The notes: generated by a model from the letters alone, not told the origin. Positions 31,533 to 47,029 are shown, counted from the first letter of the stretch. The stretch: 64,000 nucleotides of DNA from an uncultured Gammaproteobacteria bacterium (GCA_965231005.1 OZ246405.1:1095829-1159828), one strand, 5' to 3'. Numbers and translations: made by a program.

Positions 31533-31631
31533 CATTGTCTGGTTAGATGAGTAACCAGCCATCTTGCCAGAATCGCTGTTTTTGTGTAATATGTATCGTA
31601 TCTGAAAGCTGAGGCTCTGAGAGGTATCACA

Positions 31632-31854: not shown

Positions 31855-31891
31855 AAAAAATGAGTTGAGCTTTTGCTCAGCTCATTTTTTT
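31855..31891. terminator. terminator-like hairpin with flanking A/T runs (bidirectional)
   Basis: aaaaaatgagttgagc-tttt-gctcagctcattttttt; 11-bp stem with one G-U. Confidence 0.4.
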
Positions 31892-31900
31892 GTTGCAAGT

Positions 31901-31914
31901 AAGGGGAATCGAAC
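31901..31914. repeat. inverted partial copy of tRNA-Glu T-loop/acceptor core (gttcgattcccctt on minus strand)
   Basis: Reverse complement of aaggggaatcgaac matches tRNA 26142-26154 (gttcgattcccct) 13/13; not a functional tRNA (no T-stem pairing). Confidence 0.3.
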
Positions 31915-32023
31915 TGGGGATGGTAAGGGGCAGCGCCCCTTACATTTCTGGGGGTGACCGAGCGCAAGCGAGGACAAGAGGGGCGGAAGCCCCTATTGGG
32001 AGCGAGAATACGCGACGTGAGAT

Positions 32024-32039
32024 TTCCCCTACGGGCTGC
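32024..32039. repeat. attR-like 16-bp direct repeat of tRNA-Glu 3' end
   Basis: ttcccctacgggctgc identical to 26148-26163. Confidence 0.6.
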
Positions 32040-32106
32040 AGAAAGTAAAAATCCCGAGCTTGCTCGAGGATTTTTATTTTTAAAGCACGGACGGGGAAGA
32101 CACAGT

Positions 32107-32124
32107 ATTCCCCTACGGCCTGCC
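32107..32124. repeat. second att-like copy (attcccctacggcctgcc, 1 mismatch to tRNA 3' end)
   Basis: Matches tRNA 26147-26164 with g->c change; 68 bp after first attR copy. Confidence 0.45.
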
Positions 32125-32175
32125 GGCAGGCAGGGCTGCAGAGATAAAAAAATCCAAATTTATTTGGTTTTTTTA

Positions 32176-32203
32176 TTGACTTTTTCTCAAAAAATAGCAT
32201 AAT
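32176..32203 (+). promoter_or_regulatory. sigma70-like promoter TTGACT-16-CATAAT
   Basis: ttgact (32176-32181), cataat (32198-32203); 10 nt upstream of small ORF 32214-32420. Confidence 0.35.
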
Positions 32204-32213
32204 AGAAGTACCA

Positions 32214-32420
32214 ATGCTCATCCTGGAGGACCTCATGACAAAGACCAAGAAAAAAAAGCCGCCCCCCGGCCAAACTTGGGACCCACACGCACTGTTGCGT
32301 GCACGCCCTCCAGTGGATCCGGAACGAGAGGCGCTAAACAAGCGTCTGCGTGAAGCGATCCCTCGTGGGGCTGCCCAACCCGGCGGCATCATCTGCGACG
32401 AGCGCCCTCCTCAGGAGTAG
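32214..32420 (+). CDS. small Pro/Arg-rich hypothetical ORF (doubtful)
   Basis: 68 aa, no recognisable features; possibly a transcribed non-coding leader. Confidence 0.2.
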   Translation: MLILEDLMTKTKKKKPPPGQTWDPHALLRARPPVDPEREALNKRLREAIPRGAAQPGGIICDERPPQE

Positions 32421-32604
32421 GCGCCCGTACCTGCAATACTTTTGCGACGTTGTTCCCGAGCACCGGGAGCACTCATCGCACTCGCGGTGTACGGGAACAA
32501 CAAAAGAACATCTTATCTAAAGATGTTTTTTTGATTTATAACATTGACAAACCAAACAAAACATGAGATAAATACCCTACTTTCTCTCATCAAGAAAGCC
32601 TGTG

Positions 32605-32761
32605 CTGGGATGGCATAGGAACGCTCTTTCCAAAGGTTGGAACTTCTACTGGGATGGTAGTCGAGAGCTGAAACATTTTTCCCCATGATGAGCATACACG
32701 GGATGTGGATGTGGGGACGGGTGGTGGTTCAATCGAATGGATCACAGTATCTCTGGGATGG
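32605..32761. repeat. three copies of CTGGGATGG (32605, 32649, 32753) plus gggatgtggatgtgggg; iteron-like cluster
   Basis: Exact 9-mer three times within 160 bp in an AT-rich stretch upstream of ORF 32795-33676. Confidence 0.3.
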
Positions 32762-32794
32762 AGATAAGCCTGTAGTTTCACCAAAGAGGATGAC

Positions 32795-33676
32795 ATGTCA
32801 ACCACAACATTGACTTTCAACGAGGCCTGGAGCTCTGGGCCGCAAGTGTGGCTCCTGGAAGAAGGGAATGTCGGTGTCGAGCTGATGTACCTGTGGGCCA
32901 TGGGCCAAGCAACGTCACTGCAAGATCTGGAAGACCGGCTGATTGCCCGCTTCCCGAAAACCTGTCTGCTGATGCGCGACAACCACAAGGCGCTGCTGAA
33001 ATTCTGGACCGAACGGTACAAGCTGACCGCTCCGAGAACGAAGCATCCGCCAGAGGTGATCGAGCGGACACTGGATCGGTTCAAAGAATTGGCACTCGCC
33101 GGAACAAATACAGGGCGTAGGTCTGGTCTTTCGAAGTACTACATGCAAATCCTCAGCAAGGATACATGGGAGGAAAAGCCCCTGAGCTCCATGCATCGGT
33201 CTTCAGGCAAAACCCAATGCCTGGTGCCAGATAGATGGACCAAACGCAAAGTGTTTCACCCTCACTTCACTGCCTCAATGGGCAAACTCGGTGAGGTCGA
33301 TGTGAGGATCGCTCGTATCAGCGGACGAAGGAATCGCAAATTCTGGATCGGATTCTGCTTTGCACAGCGTGATCTGACTGCGCAGAAATGTGCAGAACTC
33401 CAGAAGTTGCCATTCACCCACTGGAGCGAAGCGACCATCCCGAGAACGGTTCTCAAAGTCGATGCTGCATTCGAGCTGATCATGTTCATGCCAGAAACAG
33501 CAATCGAGGCACGTATTCGTCAAACAGTGCGTGCAGTCAACTCGGGCCCCCTTTCTGACAATGCACGCTCTATCAAGTCATCCAAACAAATCGAACTGCT
33601 GCGTCAGATGAGCGACTGGCTCGAGGCGAACGGGATTCCGTGTACGTACCTCGAAGAAAATCGCATTGGGCTGTAG
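32795..33676 (+). CDS. hypothetical protein (293 aa, GC-rich)
   Basis: Long ORF with GC-rich codon usage, RBS-like aagagga 8 nt upstream; no recognisable motif. Confidence 0.4.
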   Translation: MSTTTLTFNEAWSSGPQVWLLEEGNVGVELMYLWAMGQATSLQDLEDRLIARFPKTCLLMRDNHKALLKFWTERYKLTAPRTKHPPEVIERTLDRFKELALAGTNTGRRSGLSKYYMQILSKDTWEEKPLSSMHRSSGKTQCLVPDRWTKRKVFHPHFTASMGKLGEVDVRIARISGRRNRKFWIGFCFAQRDLTAQKCAELQKLPFTHWSEATIPRTVLKVDAAFELIMFMPETAIEARIRQTVRAVNSGPLSDNARSIKSSKQIELLRQMSDWLEANGIPCTYLEENRIGL

Positions 33677-33896
33677 CTCAAAAACTCATCCCCGATACGT
33701 CGGGGGGGCAGGATGAGCCAACAACAGAACTCAAAGGAGATGGACACGACCTGCCCGTGTCCTCCCATACTGTTTCTTTAATAGAGGAAATAGTTAGGAT
33801 AAAAAACTACCACAAGCTGGTGGTTTTTTATTATCAGCAGCTTGCAAAAAAACAGTTTCACCATTATTATAAATCTACCCACACTTAACCAAGGAG

Positions 33897-34574
33897 ATGA
33901 ACGTGAAACATTCAAACGTTCTTTTCATTGCGATGGCTACAGCGTCGGTCATCCTTTTCACATCTTGCACTGGCAAAAAGGAAGCCACCCGGAAAACGGC
34001 AATTGTTGTCGAAACCACCCCAAGACCAAGAAAGCCAAATCCACCTCAACCGCCACCTTCCACTCCAAAATCACCCCAACCTCCACCAATCGACCTCTCG
34101 CAGTACAGGTACATCAAGACCGCCTGCACCACCTGTGGTTGCCCAAGAAGATACCTTGCACGCCAAGGAGATTCAGTGGTGTTGGTGACAGCAGCTGAAC
34201 TCAACAAAAATGCTCTCTGGAAGATCCACACAGGTAGCTTGAGAAGCAGGTCTGGACAATCGATCGCAACAACAGTCTTTGAACACTTTCGAGGCGGCTG
34301 TCTGGATTGGGGCAATGGTGGAACCTTGATCATCAACAGAGGAGGCTGCTTCAGAGCTTCAGGCACTCATTGGTCCCGAAGGACAAGACTCCCCAACCGT
34401 GCTCGAATCGGAGTTCAGGGGGCTGTTGGCTATCGAAGCTTTGGCAGCGGAAGATACGACAAGCACTACCTGGACTTTCAAGGACGTGGAAACTGTCACC
34501 CTTCTTTAATTCACGAAGATCGAGTGAATCGGAATACAGTCGGAGTATTTTGGCTGGTCCGAAAAGAACCATAA
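33897..34574 (+). CDS. lipoprotein with Pro-rich linker (hypothetical)
   Basis: Signal peptide with lipobox-like ILFTSC, then TPRPRKPNPPQPPPSTPKSPQPPP linker; AAGGAG RBS. Confidence 0.45.
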   Translation: MNVKHSNVLFIAMATASVILFTSCTGKKEATRKTAIVVETTPRPRKPNPPQPPPSTPKSPQPPPIDLSQYRYIKTACTTCGCPRRYLARQGDSVVLVTAAELNKNALWKIHTGSLRSRSGQSIATTVFEHFRGGCLDWGNGGTLIINRGGCFRASGTHWSRRTRLPNRARIGVQGAVGYRSFGSGRYDKHYLDFQGRGNCHPSLIHEDRVNRNTVGVFWLVRKEP

Positions 34575-34705
34575 GTAATCACAACAAGAACAACAACCCA
34601 CAACAGCGGCACCCTCCTCGGAGGCTCTGCCGCTTTTCTAATTAAAAAAGCTCCAAACCTGTTCAGATCTAAAGCTTTTTCCCCTTTTTCGTTTTTGCTT
34701 GTGTC

Positions 34706-36958
34706 CTATTTTGCACTCAGGCGGACCCTGCACCTCATTGACCAGATTTCTGCTCCAAAGACACTTCTATCCCTTATCGAAGGTTTTTTTCTTGCACCTA
34801 CGATATGCAGATTCAAAATATTTCCTTGTAGTTTTACATGCCCTCTCGGCGAACGAACTATGCCGAGTCCTTCAATCCAATCAGCCTGTGGAAGTCGTAC
34901 ATGGTCAACAATGCGTATCTTCTTTCCTGGCCTGAAACGGTAAAAACGAAGACTGCCAGCAAGCAGTTCAACAATCAAACGACGGTCAGGAATATATGCA
35001 ATATCCACATTTGCAAGTTCTGCTATAGACCGTGCATCCTTGCTCAACATATATGGAAATCCTAACGACTTCCTCAATGGAACAAAGCGGCCATTTTGAT
35101 ATTCTTGTGCGCCTACTCTAAAACCCCAGTCTTTCGATCGGACAACGTAGTATCCTGATCCTGTACTCCGGCTTGACGCTGGGCCAGTTGTGTCAGTGAA
35201 GAACATGTAGTACCACCTACCAATGTGCACAAGCGATGGCTGGCCTGCGCCATATGGATGGACAAGTGTGTTTCCCTGTTGTCTTTTTTGCCATGCATGT
35301 TGCAATCCCCTTTTTGGTGTGTCGTCAACACTAAAGACTTCGAGAACATTGCTCTTGTTCTTTACGACACCAAAGCCATGAGGATGACGCCCTGCCAGTT
35401 CTTCCCACTTCCCTCCTCTCCAAAGATTCTGTTCTATTGCCTTTACAGCACAGTCAGACCAGTGTTTGTTGCATCCTCGTGGAAATTGATACGTGTTGAA
35501 CAAGTGAACGCCATAACCTTGGAATGTCGCACGTACAAATAATTCAATACGTCCTTCTCCGCCTTTTGCCAAAGCAAGTGGTGGATGGAAACTGCGCACA
35601 GAGCCAGGATGATTTGCCACAGATGTATCAACGATCTTTGACCAGTGTTTGTTTTCAAAACGTTGATTCTTGCTTTGTCTGACTGTCCAAATAGTCCCTG
35701 TTCTGGTCAGTGCGAAGAGATGGGCATATCCTTTCTTACCCTGGATAGCCTGCACGTCGGTAGGTTTGTTTGGTACTTTGATTCTCTGCCAAGGTCTACT
35801 CCACTGCCTAGCCCAGCGACTGCCCGCAGGCCGGTTTCGGACTTTGTAATAGATGTGCCCATTTGTTCCTGTAAGTCCAAACAGAACAATACTATTACTA
35901 TTTCCAGGAGCATCTGGAACAATGCCAGAACAAACACGTGGTGAATGAAAGAAAAGAGCTTTCTGCTTAGGAACTGGGAGCAATCCCTGCCGTAGCATAC
36001 TCTCTTCCCTACCAAAAATCTGACCTGACCAAGTGCCGAACACATACACCTTTCCGTGCGCGTCGCTGTGAGCAACAACATCATGAATCGGAGAACCAAC
36101 AACATTCCAAGCGTCCTTGAACTGAAGCTTCCTTGCATGTCCAGGACTGTATGGATTTTGCCAGTTTGTGTACAGCGTGTTTGTACCCTTCTTGACTGCA
36201 TAGGCTTGGATACGACCATGCGAATGCTGTTTGTCTTGCCATGTTGCGAGTGCAAAATCACTTGCAAAAAAATTCTTTCGGATGTCACCAACATAGTGTG
36301 GACGTCTCTCCCACTTGCCAGATTCATCTCGTTGAAAGTAATGCAAGCGACTGTCTGCACTCAAACTGAATACAGCAACATCTTGCCAGACACGATCGCG
36401 CTGCGGATTGTAATGCTTCATCAGAGTTGCGACAAGTGGTGCATGATGCGTACCACCCAATCCAGCATGCCATGATGTCCACCCACCGTGCCCTTCAATC
36501 GTAGGTTGGTGACCTCGATTGAGAACTCGCTTGAAATGAAGGCTATTCGTTCTTCTTGCAATCCCGATCTTTGTTCCAGGGCCAAAGTTGTATCCACCAT
36601 ATGCCATGATGTATCCGGTCTTGCTAGTCGCAATTACACTCGGGTCACATGTGTGCATCCCGTCAAAGTGGCTCTTACTCGTTCTTTTTGTTGATCCAAA
36701 AACACGAACAGGGTTTGTCCACTTTTGTCCAGCATTCTTCTTGCTAAAACAGATCGCATCACCACTGTTTTCGCAGCACCACCACATTTTCAAGACGTTT
36801 CCGTCCCTCATGATAGTTGGTGCATACTGATATGCGGAAAACGACTTGTGAACTAGGACTGGTTTGTCACAGCCGAGAAGCTGGAAAATAGTCTCAGATT
36901 CCTGTGTCCACCCAAGCTGAGTGCTAAAGAGTATGAACAAAAAAAGTACTCGGTTCAT
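34706..36958 (-). CDS. large secreted hypothetical protein (possible beta-propeller)
   Basis: 749-756 aa; signal peptide MNRVLFLFILFSTQLGW; Trp/Gly-rich repeats; start preceded by AAGGGGGA SD shared with other GC-rich genes. Confidence 0.4.
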   Translation of the reverse strand: MNRVLFLFILFSTQLGWTQESETIFQLLGCDKPVLVHKSFSAYQYAPTIMRDGNVLKMWWCCENSGDAICFSKKNAGQKWTNPVRVFGSTKRTSKSHFDGMHTCDPSVIATSKTGYIMAYGGYNFGPGTKIGIARRTNSLHFKRVLNRGHQPTIEGHGGWTSWHAGLGGTHHAPLVATLMKHYNPQRDRVWQDVAVFSLSADSRLHYFQRDESGKWERRPHYVGDIRKNFFASDFALATWQDKQHSHGRIQAYAVKKGTNTLYTNWQNPYSPGHARKLQFKDAWNVVGSPIHDVVAHSDAHGKVYVFGTWSGQIFGREESMLRQGLLPVPKQKALFFHSPRVCSGIVPDAPGNSNSIVLFGLTGTNGHIYYKVRNRPAGSRWARQWSRPWQRIKVPNKPTDVQAIQGKKGYAHLFALTRTGTIWTVRQSKNQRFENKHWSKIVDTSVANHPGSVRSFHPPLALAKGGEGRIELFVRATFQGYGVHLFNTYQFPRGCNKHWSDCAVKAIEQNLWRGGKWEELAGRHPHGFGVVKNKSNVLEVFSVDDTPKRGLQHAWQKRQQGNTLVHPYGAGQPSLVHIGRWYYMFFTDTTGPASSRSTGSGYYVVRSKDWGFRVGAQEYQNGRFVPLRKSLGFPYMLSKDARSIAELANVDIAYIPDRRLIVELLAGSLRFYRFRPGKKIRIVDHVRLPQADWIEGLGIVRSPRGHVKLQGNILNLHIVGARKKPSIRDRSVFGAEIWSMRCRVRLSAK

Positions 36959-37134
36959 CATGTCCCCCTTTTTCATGAATGACCTTTACACCTTAGCAGA
37001 ACAGAAAGAGAAAATCCAATCTGAAAACTTTATAAAAAATTCATACTTTATTTGTAACAATTTCAATAGATATTCTTCCTTTTTAAAAGAATATCACCCA
37101 ACCAACCGCTCATTCACAATACAAGGGGGAAACC

Positions 37135-40100
37135 ATGAAAACCAGACTGTTCATTGCAGCATGTATTGCGCTGCATATCTGGGGCTGTTCAAACGGCGAA
37201 CACGAAAACGAAGCAGATGCAAAGGCTGACTTTGTCATTGGCGAAACAGCAAAAGGTGCCTGTGACGACAAAGAGCTGCCGAACAATACCAGAACCATCT
37301 TGAGCAAGTACTGCGCGGACTGTCATGGTCCGAACAGCGGGAAGCTCGGTGGATTTGGTACAGTGCTCGATGCAAAGGCAATGACGATTGGCGACAACGC
37401 GCTGGTAAAAGCTGGCAAGGTTGCTGAATCACGTCTGTTTACGAAGCTGAAAGCTGCTGGCGGGAACATGCCACTAAGTGCAGATGATCTGAGCAAGGAC
37501 GAAGTCGACACGCTGCGCGACTGGATTAACTGCGGCGCAGAGAGCTGGGACGAAGAATGCACAAGGAAATTTATTTCCAATGAAGAAATGCACAAGATAA
37601 TGGCAGATGACCTTAGCAGCCTTGCTGCTGAAGAACGGAAGAACATCCGCTATATCACACTCACGCACCTGTACAACGCATGTGTCAACCGAGACCAGCT
37701 GGATATCTATCGAACTGGCATTAGCAAACTCGTAAACAGCCTGAGCTGGACAAAGGGCATTTTCAAACCAGTTCCAGTAGGTAAATTCGGAACGATCTAC
37801 CGAATCAACCTGAGTCTGTATGGTTGGCTTCCAGGACAAACAAGCGAAAAAGGCATGTGGGAGCTCATTGAAAAGGCATATCCATACGGCTTTAAGGTTG
37901 AAAAAGGCATTGACAACGATTTTTCAGAGGTTGTAAGTCAGACCAAAACGAATACACCATACGTGCACGCTGATTGGTTTGCAAACCGTGCTGGAAAACC
38001 TCCACTCTATCACGCCCTGCTGAATCTTCCATTGACTGACACTGAGCTTGAAAAGGACTTCTTGAGTGTCGATGTTTTGTCGAATATCAAAAAGACAGAG
38101 CAAGGCAACAAAAACGCTTCTACGCGAGTAATCCGTGCTGCTGTACAAGATTCTGGTGTTTCAAACCACAACCGCATGATCGAACGTCATAAGTCAAAAT
38201 ATGGCTGGTACTGGAAAAGTTATGACTTTGCTGGCAGTGTTGGCAAGCAAGACCTTGAGCAAAATCCGCTCGGTCCAAACGAGACACCAGTAACTTTCGA
38301 ACATGATGGCGGTGAGATGATTTTCACGCTCCCAAATGGCCTTGATGGCTACTTGGTGACGAATGCTGCAAGTTGCAGGATCGACGTGGCACCAACTGCC
38401 ATTGTTTCTGATCCAAAAAGCCAGGACAAGGCTGTGCGTCCAGGAAGTTCTTGCATGGGCTGCCACTACAAGGGCAAAATTCCAGCTGCGGACTTTGTGC
38501 GTGATTCAATTACGAGCAAGAAGCAACAGTTTATCACCGAACATGGCCAGAAAGCATTTCAGGCGGTTTTGAACCTCTATCCGCCGAAAAAGGAGTTTTC
38601 TGCAGCGATCAATCAAGAGCAACAGGATTTCCTGAAACAGTTGGCGCTTGCTGGCGTTGATCCATCAAAGGATGAACCAGTCTCTGCACTGGCAAATTCG
38701 TTTGAAGATCAACTCGACAAGGTAAAGATCGCAGCAACGCTTGGAATTGATCCCAAGGAAATTGAAAACTTCCTCAAGTTCGACGCTGTAGCAAGTAGCC
38801 TGATCGGCTCAGTGCGTAAAGATGGTGAGACCATCCCACGAGACAAGTTCTGCACATACTTCTCTGCGATTCTGAACCAGAAGAATGGCACGTTCGCTGG
38901 CTACACACCACTGGCAGATGTAAAAGTTTGCCAGCCACCAAAAGACGTTGCTGGCTGTCTCCAAAACGAGTGCCTGAAAGATGCTGACTGCAATAGCAAA
39001 GACGAATGCACTGTTGGGAGCTGCAACATACAAAAAGGATGCGTGTTTACGCCTATTGCGAAGATATGCGATGATGGAAATCAGTGCACCACAGACAAAT
39101 GCATAACTGGAACTCCAAAAAAATGCACACATACACCTACTCCGAATGCAAGCTGCAATGCAGACAACAACGTTTGCACCAAGTTTGACTCGTGTTCGGA
39201 CAGCGGAGTTTGCAAAGCAGGAGAGCAAAAAGTCTGCCCAAAGCCAGTGAATCCATGTGAAAAACAAAAATGCGATTCGAAAATCGGCTGTGCAGTTGAC
39301 ATCTTGCCAAATGGGACAAGCTGCCCAGGTGGTCTTTGCCACTCTGGAAAGTGCGTACTAGCTGCAAAGCAAATAAGTGCAGGAGACCTTTTCACATGTG
39401 CAGTAACACTGAACGACACTGTTGTCTGCTGGGGTCTAAACAAATTTGGTCAGCTGGGAAATGGTTCAAAAGTGCTAAACACCTCAGTACCTGTTCATGT
39501 GAAGGGACTCACCAACGTAGAAAGCGTATCTGCTGGTGTATCACATGCTTGTGCTATTAAAAAGGACAAGACCCTGTGGTGCTGGGGTTTTAACAACTAT
39601 GGTCAACTCTCAGTGGGAAGCAACAAGGGCAGTCCAATACCAGTGAATATTCCATCTATGAAGGTAAATCAAGTTGGGATTGGAAATTCTCATACCTGCG
39701 CGCTAAACACCACCGGCTCTGTATACTGCTGGGGTGACAATTCCTACGGACAACTTGGCACAGATACGAAGGTGCTCAAAAACTCCCATAAGCCTGTCCT
39801 TGCGAGCAGTGGAATCGAACAAATAGCACTTGGTCCTCAACATTCTTGTGCCATTCAGTCTAGTAATGGCGTCTCCTGCTGGGGACGTAATCAATACGGA
39901 CAACTCGGCAATGGAAGTAAGGATGATACTCACATCACCTACAAGTGGAAAAATCTCGCTCTTCCTACATTTATTGATGCTGGATACCTAAATACCTGCG
40001 CAATAAAAAGTAATTCGTCGCTTTACTGTTGGGGAAGCAACATCCATGGAAAACTTGGTGTAGGGAGTACCAAGGCTGGCGAGGTGCTTACTCACGTCCT

Positions 40101-40428
40101 TGCAACCGCAGTTCCTACTGATGTGACAGACGTAAGTATTGGCCGACATCATGTGTGCGTGAAGACCAAAAAGAACAAATTCCATTGCTGGGGAAGCAAC
40201 AAAGATGGACAAGTAGGTTTCAATCCTCAATTCATTCACAAAAAGGAATTCCTCTTCCCACTGGCCATGGGATCTGGTAAACAGATATCGACTCGAAATT
40301 CACATACGTGTGCAATCATGGATGATAAGACGGTAAAGTGCTGGGGATTCAACTCTCTTGGACAAATAGGACACGGGAAAACAGGGGGAAGTGTTATAGG
40401 GCCGGTCCACGTATTGCCTCCGAAGTGA
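37135..40428 (+). CDS. giant lipoprotein: N-terminal CxxCH motif region, Myxococcus-type cysteine-rich repeats, seven C-terminal RCC1 repeats
   Basis: Lipobox IWGCS; YCADCHGP (heme-binding-like CxxCH); CxDGNxCTxDKC-type repeats (CDDGNQCTTDKC etc.); RCC1 blades (…CWGxNxxGQLGxG… seven times). Confidence 0.6.
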   Translation: MKTRLFIAACIALHIWGCSNGEHENEADAKADFVIGETAKGACDDKELPNNTRTILSKYCADCHGPNSGKLGGFGTVLDAKAMTIGDNALVKAGKVAESRLFTKLKAAGGNMPLSADDLSKDEVDTLRDWINCGAESWDEECTRKFISNEEMHKIMADDLSSLAAEERKNIRYITLTHLYNACVNRDQLDIYRTGISKLVNSLSWTKGIFKPVPVGKFGTIYRINLSLYGWLPGQTSEKGMWELIEKAYPYGFKVEKGIDNDFSEVVSQTKTNTPYVHADWFANRAGKPPLYHALLNLPLTDTELEKDFLSVDVLSNIKKTEQGNKNASTRVIRAAVQDSGVSNHNRMIERHKSKYGWYWKSYDFAGSVGKQDLEQNPLGPNETPVTFEHDGGEMIFTLPNGLDGYLVTNAASCRIDVAPTAIVSDPKSQDKAVRPGSSCMGCHYKGKIPAADFVRDSITSKKQQFITEHGQKAFQAVLNLYPPKKEFSAAINQEQQDFLKQLALAGVDPSKDEPVSALANSFEDQLDKVKIAATLGIDPKEIENFLKFDAVASSLIGSVRKDGETIPRDKFCTYFSAILNQKNGTFAGYTPLADVKVCQPPKDVAGCLQNECLKDADCNSKDECTVGSCNIQKGCVFTPIAKICDDGNQCTTDKCITGTPKKCTHTPTPNASCNADNNVCTKFDSCSDSGVCKAGEQKVCPKPVNPCEKQKCDSKIGCAVDILPNGTSCPGGLCHSGKCVLAAKQISAGDLFTCAVTLNDTVVCWGLNKFGQLGNGSKVLNTSVPVHVKGLTNVESVSAGVSHACAIKKDKTLWCWGFNNYGQLSVGSNKGSPIPVNIPSMKVNQVGIGNSHTCALNTTGSVYCWGDNSYGQLGTDTKVLKNSHKPVLASSGIEQIALGPQHSCAIQSSNGVSCWGRNQYGQLGNGSKDDTHITYKWKNLALPTFIDAGYLNTCAIKSNSSLYCWGSNIHGKLGVGSTKAGEVLTHVLATAVPTDVTDVSIGRHHVCVKTKKNKFHCWGSNKDGQVGFNPQFIHKKEFLFPLAMGSGKQISTRNSHTCAIMDDKTVKCWGFNSLGQIGHGKTGGSVIGPVHVLPPK

Positions 40429-40612
40429 AGATCAAGTAGCACACCACGCTCACGCGTTGTGCGCTCAACCAAACGAACGTGGACGACTGTTGCTTTTCGA
40501 AGCGACGGTCGTCCACTTTTTAATTTGATAAAAACTTTATATTCCATAATTGACAAAAATGGAAAAAAGCACTTATAGTTAAACTACAGAACTCAAACCA
40601 AGGGGGAAACCA

Positions 40613-42223
40613 ATGAAGAACGCTGTTCTTTTTACAATCTGCTGCCTACTTTTGACGCTCGGACCGAGCTGCAGCTCAAATAATCCAGTTTGCGACTTGG
40701 GTGATGTTGAGTGCAGAAGCGGTGGAAGGATGTTTTTTTGTAGAGTCTCGACAACTTCCAATGGAAACTTTTGGAAGTTTTCCCACACCTGTTCATCCAA
40801 GAAGTGCAAAAGTGCAACAACGTGCGCACCGAAGTCAACCAAAAAAGACGCAGGATCAACCCAAAAGCAGGACGGAAAAAGCACTGCAAAATACTGCGGT
40901 GACAGCATCTGTGAAACAAACGAAAGCTGCGAAACTTGCCCAAAGGACTGTGGAAAGTGTAAACCAAAATGCGGCGACGGAACATGCAACGGTCAAACAG
41001 AAAATTGCGCTGTCTGCCCACAAGACTGCAAGTGCAAGTCAGGAACCAAATGCAACAAAGCAAAAGGCATTCAAGCCTGCGTCTACGATCCAAAGTGCGG
41101 CAATGGGAAATGCGACGGTCAAACAGAAAACTGTTTCAACTGTTCCAAGGACTGCAAGTGTTCTAGTGGACAAATCTGCAGTCCGAAAAAACAAAGCTGC
41201 GTCAAACCATATTGTGGAGATGGTCTTTGCCGATCTTCTGATGGTGAACGGTGCTACAACTGCGAAGTAGATTGCAAATGCAGCTCGAGCTTGGTCTGCA
41301 GTAAGTCAAAGGGTGGATGCTGCAAACAAAAGACCTGTTCAAGCTATCCCAAAGGAATATGTGGAATCCAGTCAGATGGCTGTGACAGTACCATTTCCTG
41401 TGGATGCCCAAAGAACTATGTCTGTGGTCATAACAAGTGCAAGCTAAACTGTTCAGCACTCTGCAAAAACAAATGCGGTAAGCTGAGCAATGGCTGTAAC
41501 TGCGGCTCTTGTGGATACAACTCACTTTGCATCGGGAATGTTTGTAAATCATGCAAACCACTGTGCACTGGAAAATGCGGGAACTTTCTCGGCTGCAATT
41601 GTAGTATCTACAAAAAGTGTTCAAAGTGGTACCTCTGTGTACAAAACCAGTGCGTCAACTGCCAAGAGCTTTGCCTATTCAAAAACAAGTGGTGTGGTAA
41701 CTTCAGTGCTTGCGGCACCAACAAAAACTGCGTAAACAGCAAGTGCTCAAGTGGATACGTCTGCAAGTCAAACAAATGCACCAAAAAACCACCAGAGTGT
41801 TCGGGCGGTGCAGGCTGTGCCCCAGAAAAACTCTGCTGTGGCGGCAAGTGTAAACTTGCAAAGTTGCAGGACGACTACGGAAAGAACTGGATGTCCGCAA
41901 AGAGTGCATACTACAAGCAGACCATTTCAGGACAACTTTACCCATCCTCTGATGTTGACCTTTTTCAGGTAAAAGCGACTCTCTCTGCAAATGGAAAGAG
42001 CGTAATTCCAATTAAGTTAAAGTTCAACGGACCAGGACTGAACTGCACATTGAAGCGCAAGAAATATGGACCGAATAGTCCAGTAACGTACGCATCGTGC
42101 AACTACGCAAAGGCCTTTACTCCTCAGTGGGGATCAGGAAATGGCTACTACTACTATGTGGAGATTAGGAGCCAAAGCTCTTCTAAAAAAGGCTGCTGGA
42201 CACTGCAGGTCGTGAAAGGATAG
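40613..42223 (+). CDS. secreted cysteine-rich repeat protein with PPC-like C-terminal domain
   Basis: Signal peptide; three tandem about 42-aa repeats CGDGTCNGQTENCAVCPQDCKC / CGNGKCDGQTENCFNCSKDCKC / CGDGLCRSSDGERCYNCEVDCKC; many further CxxC units; C-term …SSDVDLFQVKA… beta-sandwich-like. Confidence 0.55.
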   Translation: MKNAVLFTICCLLLTLGPSCSSNNPVCDLGDVECRSGGRMFFCRVSTTSNGNFWKFSHTCSSKKCKSATTCAPKSTKKDAGSTQKQDGKSTAKYCGDSICETNESCETCPKDCGKCKPKCGDGTCNGQTENCAVCPQDCKCKSGTKCNKAKGIQACVYDPKCGNGKCDGQTENCFNCSKDCKCSSGQICSPKKQSCVKPYCGDGLCRSSDGERCYNCEVDCKCSSSLVCSKSKGGCCKQKTCSSYPKGICGIQSDGCDSTISCGCPKNYVCGHNKCKLNCSALCKNKCGKLSNGCNCGSCGYNSLCIGNVCKSCKPLCTGKCGNFLGCNCSIYKKCSKWYLCVQNQCVNCQELCLFKNKWCGNFSACGTNKNCVNSKCSSGYVCKSNKCTKKPPECSGGAGCAPEKLCCGGKCKLAKLQDDYGKNWMSAKSAYYKQTISGQLYPSSDVDLFQVKATLSANGKSVIPIKLKFNGPGLNCTLKRKKYGPNSPVTYASCNYAKAFTPQWGSGNGYYYYVEIRSQSSSKKGCWTLQVVKG

Positions 42224-42354
42224 ATCGCCCAAAAAATCAAACAAGGAGAAGAAAACACCAACGGTTCTGTCTTGGCAGAGCCAATGGTGTTTTTTCTTGT
42301 CAAAATATAAAAATCAAGGCATACTTGAGTAAGTTATTTTAGTAATTCCAACAT

Positions 42355-42825
42355 ATGGCAATAACAGCAAAGAAAAAAAGACAAGCTGCTGCCCAACGTG
42401 CAGCTCAGCCGAAAAAAATTTCAGAAAAAACAAAAAAATTTAACAAAGATAGTGCAGAAGAATTTTTACAAGCTGCAAGAGATGGACAGCCTTGGAAGCT
42501 CTCTTCAATTTGGCGGGTACGAAACTATTTAAAAAATGGAGGCCTTAACACAAAAGATATTGGAACAACAGAAGATGAACTCAAAGCCTTAAAAGAAAAA
42601 CTCATTAAAGAAGGAACAAAAAAAATGGAACAAGTCAGGCAGAACAAAGACGCAAGCCTTCTGGCAATTCTATCTGTCGATTTAAAAGAAGCAGGATATG
42701 ATCCTGAACTCATAGGGTCAACTGCCGCTGAGATGGATGAACTTAAAAGGGAATTTATTGAGAAAGAAGACAGAGAAAGAGAACAAAGGGAAAAAACAAG
42801 AGAAGGAGGAAGTGCTCGAAGATAA
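42355..42825 (+). CDS. hypothetical charged coiled-coil protein (host-like low GC)
   Basis: 156 aa, Lys/Glu-rich; low-GC codon usage unlike neighbours. Confidence 0.4.
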   Translation: MAITAKKKRQAAAQRAAQPKKISEKTKKFNKDSAEEFLQAARDGQPWKLSSIWRVRNYLKNGGLNTKDIGTTEDELKALKEKLIKEGTKKMEQVRQNKDASLLAILSVDLKEAGYDPELIGSTAAEMDELKREFIEKEDREREQREKTREGGSARR

Positions 42826-42849
42826 TAGAAAAAATACAGTATTGTAATG

Positions 42850-42880
42850 AAAAATCCCTTATTTATAGGGATTTTTTTCT
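42850..42880. terminator. rho-independent terminator
   Basis: aaatccct-tatttat-agggattt followed by ttttt. Confidence 0.5.
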
Positions 42881-42978
42881 TAAAAAGGAAGAAAGACGTT
42901 ATTGACCTTGACAAATCATTCAATTATGCTATAGTTAGCAGTCCACTTTTTGCTCAAAAAAAACCTGAGTTAACAGTA

Positions 42979-42997
42979 TTTTTGGAGTCTCCAAAAA
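42979..42997. promoter_or_regulatory. 19-bp palindrome tttttggag-t-ctccaaaaa (operator-like) upstream of 43138 gene
   Basis: Perfect 9-bp inverted repeat with 1-nt centre, flanked by gttaac on both sides. Confidence 0.3.
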
Positions 42998-43137
42998 CGT
43001 TGTTAACTCATGTTGCCGCTCGGCGATATGGGTCGCTTGCACAGGTTCACTGTGTAGGCATTTGAACACTACAACATAGGATCAGCTACTCCAGTCCTGT
43101 CCGGACTTGGAAAAGCACAGCTTCAAAGGGGGACCTC

Positions 43138-44463
43138 ATGAAGACAATCACCTTGATCGCAGCACTGACCTGCGCAATGATCATGGGCTGTACAGACAGC
43201 AGCAGTGTGGATGGCGACAGCTCGTCGAGTGCGAAGATCGACGGAGGATCAAGCGACGGTCACGTTTTCAACCCAGAAGACAGTGGCACCATCGACCAGA
43301 ACGATGCCGGCGAAAAGCAACCTGACCCGGGCGAATTCAAGTGGCCGTGCAAGGATCATGGCGACTGCGACAGCGGCCTTTGCGTTGACACACGGGGCGG
43401 TATGAAGTGCACCAAGACCTGCGTCAATGAATGTCCTGTTGGCTACGCTTGCAAGATAATCCAAGCGCCGGGTGGTGACAATGTGAATGCCTGTATCGAC
43501 GCGTTTCTGAACCTGTGCAAGCCGTGCACCAAGCACACCGAATGTGGTAAGAACAACAAATGCGTATCATGGGGCAAGGATGGCAGTTTCTGCGGACACT
43601 TGTGCTCGCTGGACAGCCACTGCCTCGCAGGCTACTCATGCCAAGACGCAGTGGACAAGGACGGCAAGGCCCTTGGCAAGCAGTGCAAACCCAAAAACGG
43701 CCAGTGCAAGTGCAGTCAGTTCGCGATCAACAACGAAGCCGAGACCGAGTGCTCGGACAAGGAAAAGTTCGCAAGCTGCAATGGTACGCGCAAGTGCACC
43801 ACTGGCGGTTTGACCGCATGCGACTTCGACAAGAAGGCAGAGCTTTGCAACAACCTTGACGACGATTGCGACGGCCAGACCGACGAAGAGCTGTGCGACG
43901 ACGGCAAGGAGTGCACGGTCGACAAATGCAAAGGCGGCACCTGCAGCAACGCACCCAAGACCGGCGGCTGCCAGTTCTCGAGCAAGTGCTTTACAGGCTA
44001 CTGCTCTGCAGGCGAATGCCTCAAGGGCAAGCTGGTGAAGTGCGACGACGGCAACCCCTGCACAAAGGACTACTGCGACAACAGCACAGGCTGTGAGAAC
44101 AAGCCAGACTCAGGCCAGAAGTGCGACGAAGACGGCAACCAGTGCACCACAGACGTTTGCAAGGACGGCAAGTGCAAGCACATCGGACACAGCAAGAAGT
44201 GCGACGATGACAACAAGTGCACCTTGGACGAAAAGTGCGAGCCGACCAAAGCAACATGCTCGGTGGTCACCAAGTTCAAGAACTGCCAAGACGGCAACGT
44301 CTGCACCGATGACCTGTGCAATCCCAAGACCGGCTGCTACACAACCCCTGCAAAGGATCCGGACGCGGCCAACGGCTGTCCCATCAACTTGCAGAAATGC
44401 CAGAAGAAGGTCTGCGCAGGTGGTGGTATCTGCAGCTCGGCTCCCATTCCTGGCTGCAAGTAG
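43138..44463 (+). CDS. cysteine-rich repeat lipoprotein (Myxococcus-type CxDGNxCTxDxC repeats)
   Basis: Lipobox IMGCT; repeats CDDGKECTVDKC, CDDGNPCTKDYC, CDEDGNQCTTDVC, CDDDNKCTLDEKC, CQDGNVCTDDLC; strongly GC-rich; AAGGGGGA SD. Confidence 0.55.
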   Translation: MKTITLIAALTCAMIMGCTDSSSVDGDSSSSAKIDGGSSDGHVFNPEDSGTIDQNDAGEKQPDPGEFKWPCKDHGDCDSGLCVDTRGGMKCTKTCVNECPVGYACKIIQAPGGDNVNACIDAFLNLCKPCTKHTECGKNNKCVSWGKDGSFCGHLCSLDSHCLAGYSCQDAVDKDGKALGKQCKPKNGQCKCSQFAINNEAETECSDKEKFASCNGTRKCTTGGLTACDFDKKAELCNNLDDDCDGQTDEELCDDGKECTVDKCKGGTCSNAPKTGGCQFSSKCFTGYCSAGECLKGKLVKCDDGNPCTKDYCDNSTGCENKPDSGQKCDEDGNQCTTDVCKDGKCKHIGHSKKCDDDNKCTLDEKCEPTKATCSVVTKFKNCQDGNVCTDDLCNPKTGCYTTPAKDPDAANGCPINLQKCQKKVCAGGGICSSAPIPGCK

Positions 44464-44574
44464 CTTCCCCAAACGATCCTATGTGTAGTGAACCCCACTT
44501 CGACCTGCTGGTCGGGGTGGGGTTCTATCTTTCTTACTCATTTTTTGCTATGATTAGTCAGAAATATAGAAACT

Positions 44575-45585
44575 ATGAATATTCTTGCAATTGAATCATC
44601 TTGCGATGATACATCCGTAGCATTAGTAAACTGTTCTGAAAAAGGAACAGTTATTCTTGCTGAAAAAACTGCAAGCCAAATTGATATTCACAAAAAGTAT
44701 GGTGGTGTTATTCCGGAAATCGCTGGCAGAAAACATGCTGAAGCAATCTTTCCTGTTATTGAAGAAGTAATGAACAATCAAAAAAAGCCAGATGCTATTG
44801 CTGTAACGTCTGGACCAGGTCTTATGACAGGACTTCTTATTGGCGTAGAAGCAGCAAAAATACTTTCCTATCTCTGGAATATTCCACTTATTTCAATAAA
44901 TCATATTGAAGGACATATTTATTCAACACTTCTTGGTGAAGAAAACAAAAAAATAGTATTTCCAGCAATGTGTCTTATTGTAAGTGGTGGACATACAGAG
45001 CTGATCTTAATGAAAGATCATGGTGACTATGAATTAATTGGAAAAACAAGAGATGATGCTGCAGGAGAAGCATTTGATAAAGTTGCAAAACTTCTTGGTA
45101 TGGATTATCCTGGCGGTCCACAAATTTCTAAAAACGCAGAAAAAGGAAATCCAACAGCAATCAACTTCCCTCGCCCAATGATTGATAGTGATGATTTTGA
45201 TTTTAGTTTTGCAGGATTAAAAACAGCAGTTCTCTATCACATGAAAGATAATCCAGATGCCAATGTTGCAGATGTATGTGCAAGTTTTGAACAAGCTGCT
45301 GTTGATGTACTTGTTTCCAAAACTGAAAAGGCAGTAAAAAAGTATAATGCAAAAACACTCATCCTTGGTGGTGGTGTTAGTGCAAACACAAAACTCAAAG
45401 AGTCTTTGCAAACAATAGTTGATGATTCCCAAATTTCTAATTTCCAATTTCCAATTTCTAAGTATGCTATGGACAACGCAGCAATGATTGGTGCTGCAGC
45501 ATATGAACATGCAAAAAAGAAAAATTTTACTCCTTGGAAAGATATTACTGCTGACTCAAACTGGAAAATCTATGAAAAAAATTAA
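44575..45585 (+). CDS. tsaD: tRNA N6-adenosine threonylcarbamoyltransferase
   Basis: MNILAIESSCDDTSVALV... Kae1/TsaD family; 336 aa. Confidence 0.85.
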   Translation: MNILAIESSCDDTSVALVNCSEKGTVILAEKTASQIDIHKKYGGVIPEIAGRKHAEAIFPVIEEVMNNQKKPDAIAVTSGPGLMTGLLIGVEAAKILSYLWNIPLISINHIEGHIYSTLLGEENKKIVFPAMCLIVSGGHTELILMKDHGDYELIGKTRDDAAGEAFDKVAKLLGMDYPGGPQISKNAEKGNPTAINFPRPMIDSDDFDFSFAGLKTAVLYHMKDNPDANVADVCASFEQAAVDVLVSKTEKAVKKYNAKTLILGGGVSANTKLKESLQTIVDDSQISNFQFPISKYAMDNAAMIGAAAYEHAKKKNFTPWKDITADSNWKIYEKN

Positions 45586-45718
45586 CAACTAGCAATTAAC
45601 AATTAACAAACTATGTGGGTACGGTTCCTGTCCAAAATATTTTTAAAAATTTATATAACAAATTCTAGTATAAAGAACCAACAAAAGTTGTTAATTGCTA
45701 ATTGTTTATTGTTAATTG
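45584..45718. repeat. inverted-repeat pair of the TTGTTAATTGCTAATTGTT family flanking about 85-bp AT-rich spacer
   Basis: Left aacaactagcaattaacaa (45584-45602) is reverse complement of right ttgttaattgctaattgtt (45688-45706) with 1 mismatch; right arm near-identical to 4338-4357. Confidence 0.5.
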
Positions 45719-46924
45719 TCATATATGACCAACCACATAGATAAAAGAATTTACCGCCTACTTATTTCACATGGTTTTTATGGTTGCACGAGAATTTTAA
45801 ACAATGTTTTTTTAAGTTTATACATTTGGAACCTCTCAAGTGGATTTCAGCCACTTGCAATTTATTTTTCCTCTTATTTATTTTTTCATAGTCTCTTTTT
45901 TCATCTTTGGGGATATGTTGTAAAACATGGACATACACATATTGTAAGATTAGTAGGACTTGTTGGAATGCTTGGCTTTTATGGATTTTTATTGTTTGTA
46001 AGACAAGATGCAATAAATCATCTTGTACTTCTTGGTCTTCTCCACGGAATCTTTGGATCAATGTACTGGCTTACCTACCACGTGCTTGTTTTTGATAGCA
46101 CTCATACAAAAAATAGAGCAAACTATTTGGGGATGGAAAATGCCATGTCAATCATTGTGAACGTGGCCACTCCGCTGATTGGAGGTTTTCTTGTCACACT
46201 AAATTTATTTGGTCTAGGATATGAAACCGTCTTTGCATTGTCAGGATTAAGTGTTCTTGCTGCAATTATTATTGGATATGTTACTCCACCAAAAACATAT
46301 TGTGGGCACCTTCATATGCGAGAAACATGGAACTTGGTACGAAAAGAAAAAGACCTTTTAAAAGTTTTTGCTGCACAATTTTTTAGTAATGTTGGATACC
46401 GAGGATCTCTTGATAAAATCCTCCTCTTTTTATTGTTCGATGTTTTACAAAAAGAATTTACCCTTGGTGGATGGCTTGCTGTATTTTCTGCAGTCGCAGT
46501 ATTTTCATCTTGGTACATTGGAAAACATTTGTCACCAGACAAATACAGAACTGCAATTATTTACTCAGGAATTCTTATGTTTGCATCGTTCTTTGCTCTC
46601 ATCGGAATACCACATATTGTAACGTATATTACATTTAGTATTGTAAAAGAAGTGCTTACACCATTTATTCGAATTCCACGACAAGTATATGGAAGAAATT
46701 TGATTCACATTTTAAACAATCACAACAAACATCGTATTGAATTCTTTATTATTCGTGAGTGGTTTGGTATTGGATTTGGAAGAATGTTTAGCTACCTCCT
46801 TCTTTTACCCATCGCTACGCTTGATGGACCAAATTTAAAAATTGTTCTTATTTTTATGGCACTCTCTATGGTTGTGGCACCATATATTCTCTCTAGAATA
46901 AAAACTGATTTAAAAACTGTATAA
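45716..46924 (+). CDS. major-facilitator-like polytopic membrane transporter
   Basis: 402 aa, about 12 predicted hydrophobic helices. Confidence 0.4.
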   Translation: MSYMTNHIDKRIYRLLISHGFYGCTRILNNVFLSLYIWNLSSGFQPLAIYFSSYLFFHSLFFHLWGYVVKHGHTHIVRLVGLVGMLGFYGFLLFVRQDAINHLVLLGLLHGIFGSMYWLTYHVLVFDSTHTKNRANYLGMENAMSIIVNVATPLIGGFLVTLNLFGLGYETVFALSGLSVLAAIIIGYVTPPKTYCGHLHMRETWNLVRKEKDLLKVFAAQFFSNVGYRGSLDKILLFLLFDVLQKEFTLGGWLAVFSAVAVFSSWYIGKHLSPDKYRTAIIYSGILMFASFFALIGIPHIVTYITFSIVKEVLTPFIRIPRQVYGRNLIHILNNHNKHRIEFFIIREWFGIGFGRMFSYLLLLPIATLDGPNLKIVLIFMALSMVVAPYILSRIKTDLKTV

Positions 46925-46930
46925 CTTTAC

Positions 46931-46959
46931 TTGACAATACAAAAGCTGCGCGCTAGTAT
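46931..46959 (+). promoter_or_regulatory. sigma70-like promoter TTGACA-17-TAGTAT upstream of prs
   Basis: ttgaca 46931-46936, tagtat 46954-46959; followed by AAGGGGGA SD before ATG 47030. Confidence 0.35.
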
Positions 46960-47029
46960 AGCGATAGTGAACCTTTTCAACCAAGCGGCCTGATTTTGCA
47001 GGCTGCTTTTCATTCCAAGGGGGAAATCC

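Follow-up and report, generated by a model that had tools for sequence, protein, structure and literature searches.

The locus between tRNA-Glu and tsaD

Within the 64-kb window, i.e., the whole stretch of DNA that was analysed, four long genes for exported proteins or lipoproteins lie upstream of the housekeeping gene tsaD. All four reading frames are intact and carry N-terminal hydrophobic leaders, in keeping with the secreted or lipoproteins of the first-pass annotation, and the cluster proteins were found on an NCBI contig of 1.23 Mb. Pattern searches for a lipobox ([LVI][ASTVI][GAS]C) returned near-canonical motifs in p441 (..IMGC, IMG/C) and in the small protein o225 (FTS/C), and a motif with an unusual Trp at -2 in p1097 (..HIWGC, IWG/C), whereas the leaders of p756 and p536 are of the Sec type and contain no canonical lipobox. 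The probable true start of p756 is the ATG at 36958, which gives a protein of 750 aa (p750) with its SD motif at the right distance.

The host genome has a GC content of 35%, and its TsaD is 61–68% identical to that of Candidatus Magasanikbacteria MAGs; together with the 1.23-Mb contig, this agrees with the small, low-GC genome described earlier and identifies the host, by its sequence, as a Magasanikbacteria-type CPR bacterium. In relatives, tRNA-Glu lies directly upstream of tsaD at a distance of <300 bp (seen by synteny in L008, L014, L022, L045, L006 and others) vs. 18.4 kb here, which places the cluster in what is, from gene order, a variable region and tRNA-Glu insertion hotspot. The insert comprises a 5.9-kb integrative element (element A) and a 12.4-kb mosaic (region B) of GC-rich genes interleaved with host-like AT-rich spacers, and the GC content along the window changes abruptly from 35% to 58% to 46%. 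In 80 related genomes, the 10 kb on either side of tsaD contain no homolog of the island ORFs, and neither mobility genes nor an integrase were found in region B. Absence from relatives combined with atypical composition, as expected of genomic islands, characterizes the inserted genes with the exception of p441, for which one further CPR contig, syntenic with the window, contains a counterpart.

Table 1 Positions of the features at the tRNA-Glu–tsaD locus, in window coordinates
Feature	Position	Strand	Remarks
tRNA-Glu(UUC), integration target	26091-26165	+	ARAGORN, Rfam; synteny
Direct repeat copy 1, TTCCCCTACGGGCTGC	26148-26163	+	tRNA 3' end, attL-like
Element A, integrative	26166-32039	.	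5.9 kb, 58% GC; adjoins the cluster, not part of it
MerR-HTH/ResIII helicase (element A)	26310-28382	+	
DUF8370/phrog_27295 protein (element A)	28580-30109	+	Rep-like
Large serine recombinase (element A)	30114-31562	-	Resolvase + Recombinase + Zn_ribbon_recom
Direct repeat copy 2	32024-32039	+	exact 16 nt, attR-like, then terminator-like hairpin
Direct repeat copy 3	32108-32123	+	1 mismatch, then hairpin
o293	32795-33676	+	293 aa, no family match, GC3 0.62
o223/o225	33903-34574	+	small Pro-rich lipoprotein candidate (..ILFTSC); AAGGAG SD before GTG start
p756/p750	34706-36958	-	original ORF 34706-36976
AAGGGGGA SD motif of p750	36963-36970	-	
AAGGGGGA SD motif of p1097	37123-37130	+	
p1097	37135-40428	+	lipoprotein candidate, 1097 aa
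p1097 PVC-type module	37267-38904	+	residues ~45-590; PSCyt1/class-I cytochrome-c-like domain + ~450-aa body
p1097 CxxCH motifs	37312-37326, 38452-38466	+	two, invariant
p1097 Dicty_CTDC-type Cys-rich stalk	38905-39360	+	residues 591-742; 36.3 bits, 2 stretches
p1097 seven-blade RCC1-like beta-propeller	39364-40404	+	residues 744-1090; Pfam; DNA repeats D2, D3
Terminator-like hairpin after p1097	40479-40516	+	
Promoter-like TTGACA-18-TATAGT	40550-40579	+	11/12, upstream of p536
AAGGGGGA SD motif of p536	40600-40607	+	
p536	40613-42223	+	exported, 14.7% Cys
p536 repeats CG[DN]GxC..E.C..C..DC	40964-41341	+	three, 42 aa; DNA spacing 126 nt
p156	42355-42825	+	156 aa, Lys/Glu-rich, GC3 0.23; no SD, no leader peptide
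Promoter-like TTGACA-16-TATAGT	42908-42935	+	extended TG, 11/12, upstream of p441
AAGGGGGA SD motif of p441	43126-43133	+	
p441	43138-44463	+	lipoprotein candidate, 12.7% Cys, GC3 0.75; conserved Cys-rich N-domain
p441 Dicty_CTDC repeats	43894-44322	+	about 5
Strong terminator-like hairpin after p441	44490-44525	+	16 pairs; right end of the GC-rich region
tsaD	44575-45585	+	host housekeeping gene, right flank

The GC excess of the four genes over the host that had been reported before was reproduced (GC 0.46–0.57 and GC3 0.41–0.75 vs. host GC3 of 0.248 ± 0.08), while the intergenic spacers and p156 are host-like in composition. All four genes possess individual promoter-like sites and a common genome-specific SD motif, AAGGGGGA, which is shared with two further GC-rich genes elsewhere and absent from host genes. 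Strong SD motifs precede 7 of the 8 GC-rich genes outside element A vs. 2 of 35 host genes; element A has no SD motifs. That the CPR host otherwise starts translation without SD motifs and gave each of the singly inserted GC-rich foreign genes, among them the Planctomycete-type di-CxxCH cytochrome-like module joined to an RCC1 propeller, an identical strong G5 SD (AAGGGGGA) is a speculative and rather improbable reading of this pattern; if it were true, such domestication would point to a dedicated route of expression for acquired genes in a reduced genome or, alternatively, to one donor lineage that has gone unrecognised.

Ancestry of the region B genes

The N-terminal half of p1097 is 37–40% identical to >2600 proteins, among which the taxon-named homologs belong to Gemmataceae, Pirellulaceae or Frigoriglobus. 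Its N-terminal ~545 aa align end to end with this PVC family and keep all invariant residues, including both CxxCH motifs and a Met-Pro pair. The genomic contexts of the best matches are not CPR-like, and no full-length homolog of p1097 was found. For p441, a full-length alignment was obtained with a Myxococcota-centred lipoprotein family (31–46% identity; about 80 positions are invariant, most of them Cys), whose named members all derive from Myxococcota or 'Deltaproteobacteria' and whose loci mostly have 60–74% GC. The protein resembles these Dicty_CTDC/MopE-related Cys-rich lipoproteins over its full length and in its lipoprotein leader; it differs from them in lacking a Pfam match to PF11617, the MopE copper-binding domain carried by many of its relatives, and in its location beside tsaD in a CPR genome of 35% GC. 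Informative homologs were found neither for p756 nor for most of p536, which has only its CGDGxC repeat in common with other proteins and is otherwise unique.

These comparisons support a foreign ancestry of the cluster genes. The first-pass annotation had regarded the cluster as a horizontal gain of architectures typical of large-genome bacteria, and the affiliation of the domain families with Planctomycetota and Myxococcota, the insertion at a hotspot and the composition speak for this view, but not for the arrival of one fresh block. The data do not support a single, recent transfer of one block because the spacers and p156 are host-like and because every gene has its own promoter-like site and the shared SD motif. 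Instead, GC-rich genes of foreign ancestry would have become embedded singly in host-like spacers, each equipped with a promoter-like site and a strong AAGGGGGA SD, and therefore look domesticated rather than freshly imported. Best matches within the host's own lineage, which would weaken the case for horizontal gain, were found in part, namely for p441 only: its counterpart P0132 (46% identity) lies between L10 and tsaD in a CPR contig that has nearly the whole gene order of the window in common. Deviating GC content does not date the transfer, since prs, a housekeeping gene at a conserved position, is as GC-rich here as p441 and is likewise GC-rich in two diverged relatives (L008 and L045), whose TsaD is only 63% identical to that of the window. 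From the p441 counterpart and the GC-rich prs of diverged relatives, part of region B may be old and vertically inherited.

These same observations, i.e., P0132 at the position of p441 in a nearly fully shared gene order and prs alleles that remain GC-rich over long divergence, together with the host-like spacers and the genome-specific SD of all four genes, could also indicate that the genes are long-resident, lineage-specific and fast-evolving native surface proteins, whose GC-richness is maintained and not a trace of import. We consider this unlikely for three reasons. Neither the P0132 contig nor any of the 80 related loci contains p756, p1097 or p536. The p1097 module occurs overwhelmingly in Planctomycetota and the p441 family in high-GC Myxococcota-type genomes. 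Over its conserved N-domain, p441 is about as similar to P0132 (46%) as to the members from Myxococcota (45–47%).

Protein architecture and a proposed role at the cell surface

The largest protein, p1097, begins with a PVC-type module that has the sequence features of class I cytochromes (CxxCH and a distal Met in a cytochrome-c fold; PF13442, PF07635), matching PF13442 with 27.3 bits while Pfam PSCyt1 does not score. The CADCH motif noted earlier near the N-terminus is present at residue 60, and a second CxxCH motif (CMGCH), which had been overlooked, lies at residue 440. The ~450-aa body of the module has no Pfam match and no significant structural match in the PDB. At the C-terminus, the seven RCC1 blades of the previous annotation were recovered by RCC1_2 in seven stretches (E = 3.5e-62) and by WD40_RLD (E = 2.7e-74), and the propeller exceeds the Pfam gathering thresholds of the RCC1-like families (PF00415/PF13540/PF25390), with 205 bits for RCC1_2 (cutoff 22), 156 for RCC1 and 251 for WD40_RLD (cutoff 150).

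Among PVC bacteria, the joining of PSCyt1 to a WD40 beta-propeller is an established architecture (PMC3542564), and PSCyt1/WD40 and PSCyt1/TPR proteins with the domains of Studholme 2004 are discussed in the same source. Like these proteins, p1097 consists of a module with both CxxCH motifs followed by a repeat or propeller domain. In contrast, its partner is a CTDC stalk plus RCC1 propeller, a combination absent among the 120 best matches, its host is a monoderm-type CPR bacterium and not a planctomycete, and its leader is lipobox-like.

Cysteine-rich repeats of the form CxDGNxCTxDxC had been assigned to three of the proteins. They were confirmed for p1097 (one strict copy) and p441 (five loose copies), but p536 has none. 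The Dicty_CTDC model (PF00526; 24-aa repeat, gathering cutoff 27 bits) matches p441 with 46.6 bits in four stretches and the isolated segment 591–742 of p1097 with 36.3 bits, although the whole of p1097 scores 26.5 bits, just below the cutoff; it does not match p536 or p756, the latter of which is not Cys-rich (1.2% Cys). The proposed TIGR02232 repeat found no match in any cluster protein (NCBIfam, E ≤ 0.01), a search in which HMMER filters can lose short-repeat models. The three tandem 42-aa Cys repeats attributed to p536 are borne out by CG[DN]GxC motifs at residues 120, 162 and 201, whereas its supposed PPC-like domain (PF04151) found no support: neither the whole protein nor its last 116 aa has a Pfam match at E ≤ 10, and no sequence match was found in the PDB. 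The exported orphan p756 contains split GH43-like blades (residues 50–127 and 575–594) around an all-beta insert of ~440 aa. An assignment to GH43 (PF04616) found no support, as there is no Pfam match and the likeness to a GH43-annotated protein is local, confined to these two segments (41% identity over residues 50–127). A weak WD40_RLD match (E = 0.012) was also observed in p756, and its AF2 model has a pLDDT of 33.

Taken together, our favored reading, to which we assign a probability of roughly two in three, is that the four intact exported proteins encoded in this variable region are products of foreign, domesticated genes and form a lineage-specific cell-surface binding set. In such a set, p1097 would be lipid-anchored at Cys18, with the PSCyt1 module followed by a disulfide-rich CTDC stalk and a distal RCC1 binding head. 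The lipoprotein candidate p441 and the exported p536 would represent disulfide-rich repeat proteins and p756 an exported beta-rich orphan with GH43-like blades. Presumably located at the surface, the four proteins together would bind a partner cell or an extracellular polymer. Attachment to a host, which we infer from the architecture, has a precedent in the minor pilin PilX2 of Saccharibacteria TM7x, a CPR episymbiont in which an RCC1 propeller acts as a surface module (PMC11623550). Both proteins are encoded by CPR bacteria and have a seven-blade RCC1 propeller, that of PilX2 residing on a surface structure that has been linked to interaction with the host; p1097, however, has no pilin N-terminus, combines a candidate lipoprotein leader with a cytochrome-like module and is likened to PilX2 by its architecture. 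The cluster is not a new kind of system.

A role in nutrient acquisition or redox metabolism appears improbable. It would make p1097 an extracellular di-heme cytochrome akin to FoxE-like iron oxidases, p756 a GH43-type glycosidase and the Cys-rich proteins metal-binding like MopE. The two invariant CxxCH motifs and the Met-Pro of p1097, the resemblance of its cytochrome domain to the FoxE iron oxidase, the GH43-like blades and the PF11617 domain of many p441 relatives are compatible with such a role, but neither does p441 itself match PF11617 nor p756 the GH43 Pfam model, and the distal RCC1 propeller on a CTDC stalk indicates a binding architecture. Furthermore, covalent attachment of heme depends on a Ccm or Ccs/Res maturation system, genes for cytochrome maturation or heme synthesis were not found within the 64-kb window of the 1.23-Mb genome, and CPR bacteria usually lack cytochrome-c maturation as well as heme synthesis. 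Consequently, the CxxCH module may be heme-free or have another role; if heme were attached, p1097 would place a c-type cytochrome at the surface of a bacterium whose lineage is believed to have none.

Element A and its borders

Element A represents a discrete and presumably young 5.9-kb integrative element inserted beside a tRNA and flanked by 16-nt copies of the 3' end of this tRNA. It displays the arrangement typical of tRNA-associated islands, i.e., a tRNA at one border whose 3' end recurs as a direct repeat at the opposite one, and the 16-nt repeat occurs in three copies in the window, a number reached in 0 of 100 shuffles. The repeat search did not find this arrangement for region B. Its recombinase is best described, from its sequence, as a generic large serine recombinase; an SCC-type (Ccr) enzyme was rejected on scores of 97 bits for CcrB (cutoff 900) and 68 for CcrA (cutoff 700).

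Like tRNA-associated and SCC-type islands, the locus is bordered by a tRNA, contains direct repeats of the 3' end of its target as well as a site-specific recombinase, is arranged in tandem, deviates in composition and is missing from relatives. It differs in that the recombinase is a large serine enzyme instead of the tyrosine integrase usual for tRNA-associated islands, that the repeats flank element A only and that the cargo region B has host-like spacers and no right-hand repeat. Elements A and B could nevertheless form one SCC-style composite island, in which the recombinase of A mobilises B in trans via the repeated tRNA-derived sites. The occurrence of the tRNA 3'-end sequence in three tandem copies, the position of A next to B at one tRNA and the distant similarity of the recombinase to CcrA/CcrB/XisF fit this scenario, yet we regard it as very unlikely. 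The right end of B lacks a repeat even at three mismatches per 16 nt, leaving a weak TTCCCC match (44467–44472); A has 58% GC and no SD motifs vs. a mosaic of 46–57% GC with G5 SD motifs in B; a p441 counterpart occurs on the P0132 contig in the absence of A; and the Ccr scores remain far below the cutoff.

An assembly chimera, in which GC-rich DNA of other community members was misjoined to the CPR contig, would account for the abrupt GC changes and the homologs in other phyla but is effectively refuted, as positions 31084–50428 recur unchanged in a run that was assembled independently and a third assembly shows 2 nt differences over 23 kb (three assemblies concurring on the junctions, with 0 and 2 mismatches), the tRNA-derived repeats lie exactly at the GC break, and host-like spacers and p156 are interleaved with the GC-rich genes. 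The third repeat copy may have been left behind by an earlier event or may have arisen by local duplication.

The insertion between tRNA-Glu and tsaD

The genes flanking the four exported-protein ORFs (p756, p1097, p536 and p441) are ordinary housekeeping genes (L7/L12, L10 with an Rfam leader, TsaD, Prs, DnaE, PheST, MreB, RRF and RibD/RibBA), and the 61–68% identity of TsaD to Candidatus Magasanikbacteria MAGs identifies the host as a CPR/Patescibacteria bacterium. Over a background of ~35% GC, the window contains one block of 58–59% GC at 26–32 kb and another of 46–57% GC at 32–44.5 kb. Relatives display the order L7/L12 - L10 - tRNA-Glu - tsaD - (prs) - dnaE, and under 300 bp lie between their tRNA and tsaD (fetched loci L008, L014, L022, L045, L006 and L007). 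In the window, 18.4 kb separate the end of the tRNA (26165) from the start of tsaD (44575). For the ten ORFs of this interval, no homolog occurs within ±10 kb of tsaD in any of 80 related loci. An assembly chimera could be rejected. Two ENA assemblies from different PRJEB17505 runs give identical gene order, one contig being 100% identical to the window across 31084–50428 and the second differing by 2 nt in 23.3 kb. Because these independent assemblies agree and the cluster proteins are also present on a 1.23-Mb NCBI contig, the junctions are not an assembly artefact.

The insertion consists of two parts, element A and region B. Element A is a discrete integrative element, separate from the finding described here. 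Its two borders each carry an exact copy of a 16-nt direct repeat (TTCCCCTACGGGCTGC, at 26148 and 32024) that reproduces the tRNA 3' end. Position 32108 has a third copy, which differs by one mismatch; three copies were reached in 0 of 100 shuffles. The element encodes a MerR-HTH/ResIII helicase, a DUF8370/phrog_27295 protein and a large serine recombinase, all without Shine-Dalgarno (SD) motifs, and its DNA had no megablast match among plasmids. The DUF8370 protein matches phrog_27295 strongly (PHROG, E=4e-141), though no match was found among INPHARED phages. It shows distant similarity to proteins encoded by small plasmids of Bacillus (4.5–15 kb) and Rhodococcus; given the relatives on Bacillus plasmids, it is possibly a replication protein.

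Directly upstream of the tRNA (26036–26090), the 5' two-thirds of tRNA-Glu recur in degenerate form (GTCTAGTGGT...CATCCTGGCGACAG), and the far side of element A (32024–32175) has two tandem ~84-nt units, each comprising the tRNA 3' end, GCAGA(A/G)A..AAAAATCC and a hairpin. These features suggest that integration, excision or duplication has happened here repeatedly. The acceptor stem of the tRNA is unlike that of relatives, yet the displaced repeat copies share its 3' sequence; import of the tRNA together with the island was therefore rejected, and the data are consistent with a native tRNA-Glu. AT-rich TTAACAATTAAC-type repeats are arranged as inverted repeats immediately to the left of the tRNA region (25927–25958) and immediately downstream of tsaD (45577–45717, with a 41-nt palindromic pair at 45580–45717); another copy lies at 4298. 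They may be host intergenic elements.

Region B contained no mobility gene and no right-end tRNA-derived repeat at ≤3 mismatches in 16 nt; the sole local-alignment match to the tRNA repeat, a 6-nt TTCCCC after the p441 stop, was treated as chance. At fine scale the region is a mosaic in which gene bodies have 44–59% GC, while the spacers at 36.9–37.1, 40.5–40.65 and 42.3–43.05 kb are host-like in composition, as is the gene p156 (GC3 0.23), one of three smaller ORFs lying among the four named ones. Another of these, o293, had no match in IMG/VR viral contigs.

Coordinates of the inserted segments, the four exported-protein ORFs and prs (window positions)
Feature	Position	Strand	Description
Element A	26166-32039		compact 5.9 kb, 58% GC; inserted in tRNA-Glu 3' end
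Region B	~32.1-44.5 kb		holds the four ORFs and o293, o225, p156
p756 ORF	34706-36976	-	756 aa
p1097 ORF	37135-40428	+	1097 aa
p536 ORF	40613-42223	+	536 aa
p441 ORF	43138-44463	+	441 aa
prs (PRPP synthetase)	47030-48019	+	SD AAGGGGGA at 47017-47024; conserved position between tsaD and dnaE

Architecture and predicted role of the four proteins

The four ORFs are present with the positions and lengths that the first-pass annotation had described, and their domain content could be refined. Of the three proteins said to carry a CxDGNxCT-type cysteine motif, two do and the third does not, and the motif corresponds to Dicty_CTDC; profile searches gave no TIGR02232 Cys-repeat match in p441, p536 or p756 and did not bear out the PPC domain assigned to p536. 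The CxxCH motif reported in p1097 is present, together with a second one that had been missed.

p1097 reads, from its sequence, as an anchor followed by a PSCyt1-type module, a disulfide-rich stalk and a propeller head. Within the PSCyt1 module, a body of ~450 aa recurs in thousands of Planctomycete proteins and is without a solved structural relative, which makes it a defined target for structural work. p536 is predicted to be exported and contains 14.7% Cys; in an exhaustive HMMER search its overlap with other proteins was limited to three CG[DN]GxC..E.C..C..DC repeats (residues ~90–240), and the remainder is unique. p756 is an orphan whose resemblance to other proteins is confined to two short GH43-like blades (residues 50–127 and 575–594); it had no match by sequence in the PDB or in IMG/VR viral contigs, and its single-sequence AF2 model reached a pLDDT of 33. 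p441, in which 12.7% of residues are Cys, is a candidate lipoprotein (..IMGC) with a Dicty_CTDC match of 46.6 bits.

Attachment to other microbes is the presumed lifestyle of CPR/Patescibacteria, yet their surface recognition molecules outside Saccharibacteria are largely unknown. The locus offers concrete, intact candidates for surface recognition in a Magasanikbacteria-type genome, i.e., a lipoprotein candidate with an RCC1 head and disulfide-rich repeat proteins. Judged from predicted features, the proteins most likely form a lineage-specific cell-surface set, for which a role in attachment would be plausible. For an RCC1 propeller borne by a surface structure, the minor pilin PilX2 of Saccharibacteria (PMC11623550) is a precedent, and the combination of PSCyt1 with a beta-propeller is a recognised architecture in PVC bacteria (PMC3542564). 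Variable-region surface proteins, the tRNA hotspot and the domain families were already known; the domain fusion is new.

Shared translation signals and the ancestry of the genes

The four genes share a translation signal that is missing from host genes in the window. The motif AAGGGGGA (hereafter G5 SD) occurs seven times in the window compared with 1.3 expected, a count reached in 0 of 100 shuffles, and six copies lie 3–5 nt upstream of an ATG, namely those of p756, p1097, p536, p441, prs and a 109-aa ORF. In p756 it serves the second ATG (36958), in agreement with the 750-aa ENA gene call. A strong SD precedes seven of the eight GC-rich genes outside element A, in six of them as the identical G5 SD; among host genes a strong SD core was found in 2 of 35, with any start codon in codons 1–60 allowed. 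Promoter-like TTGACA-N16-18-TATAG sites also occur at p536, p441 and prs, and strong terminator-like hairpins follow p1097 and p441. In the other fetched loci (2.3 Mb in total) the G5 SD occurs rarely, and P0157, a p441 homolog on a CPR-type contig, uses AAGGAG. The signal could reflect a common donor of the GC-rich genes or, alternatively, a compensatory SD matched to the anti-SD of the lineage.

Full-length homologs of p441 are 31–46% identical, and all named ones derive from Myxococcota or 'Deltaproteobacteria' MAGs; most of 80 loci of the family that metagenomes yielded have 60–74% GC. The best match, P0132 (46%), is encoded on a 142-kb CPR contig of JGI 3300072015 between L10 and tsaD, in nearly gene-for-gene the order of the window, and every island gene other than the p441 counterpart is absent from that contig. 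P0157 (41%) likewise lies near tsaD. In the conserved N-domain, P0132 (46%) is no closer to p441 than Myxococcota-type members are (45–47%). A metagenome scan with the p441 family recovered neither the P0132 contig nor a close relative (maximum identity ~42%). p441 may be older than the other island genes or may have been independently delivered to the same hotspot. P0157 (426 aa) is itself one of two adjacent Dicty_CTDC proteins in another CPR-type genome of 52% GC (L086/L087, 8001–9281, plus strand), the other being a 576-aa protein (6232–7962, minus strand); the pair has ~60% GC, above its surroundings, and lies a few kb from tsaD-dnaE. Within the window, a 460-aa M23-peptidase gene (20918–22300, minus strand) shows intermediate GC3 (0.40) and has AAGGAGGGGAG as SD upstream of its TTG start codon; in the P0132 contig, the corresponding position is taken by an M23 gene of only 133 aa.

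Taken together, phyletic distribution, composition, absence from relatives and location in a tRNA hotspot make a foreign ancestry of the building blocks, from distant large-genome phyla, well supported. This part of the horizontal origin proposed in the first-pass annotation stands. The data do not support one recent transfer of the genes as a block, since each of them sits separately in host-like DNA and they have genome-specific translation signals in common. Composition, moreover, cannot date the events, as illustrated by prs, which is as foreign-looking as p441 (GC 0.57, GC3 0.67, host-referenced CAI 0.34) and persists, GC-rich, at its syntenic position across deep divergence. Its GC3 exceeds that of TsaD in L008 (0.64 vs. 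0.33, with AGGGGGAAAATG) and L045 (0.76 vs. 0.45); enrichment relative to neighbours is absent in L015, L020, L025, L026 and L030. GC deviation in this lineage should consequently be read as a mark of foreign ancestry and not of recency.

The 109-aa ORF (61467–61794, minus strand) has two predicted TM helices and occupies its own isolated ~450-bp patch of 59–63% GC within DNA of 26–35% GC; its SD, CCAAGGGGGAATCATG at 61797–61804, is the same as that of the cluster genes and prs. Two small adjacent ORFs of 60 and 86 aa (60518–60978, plus strand) look by eye like a putative antitoxin and RelE/ParE-type toxin pair.
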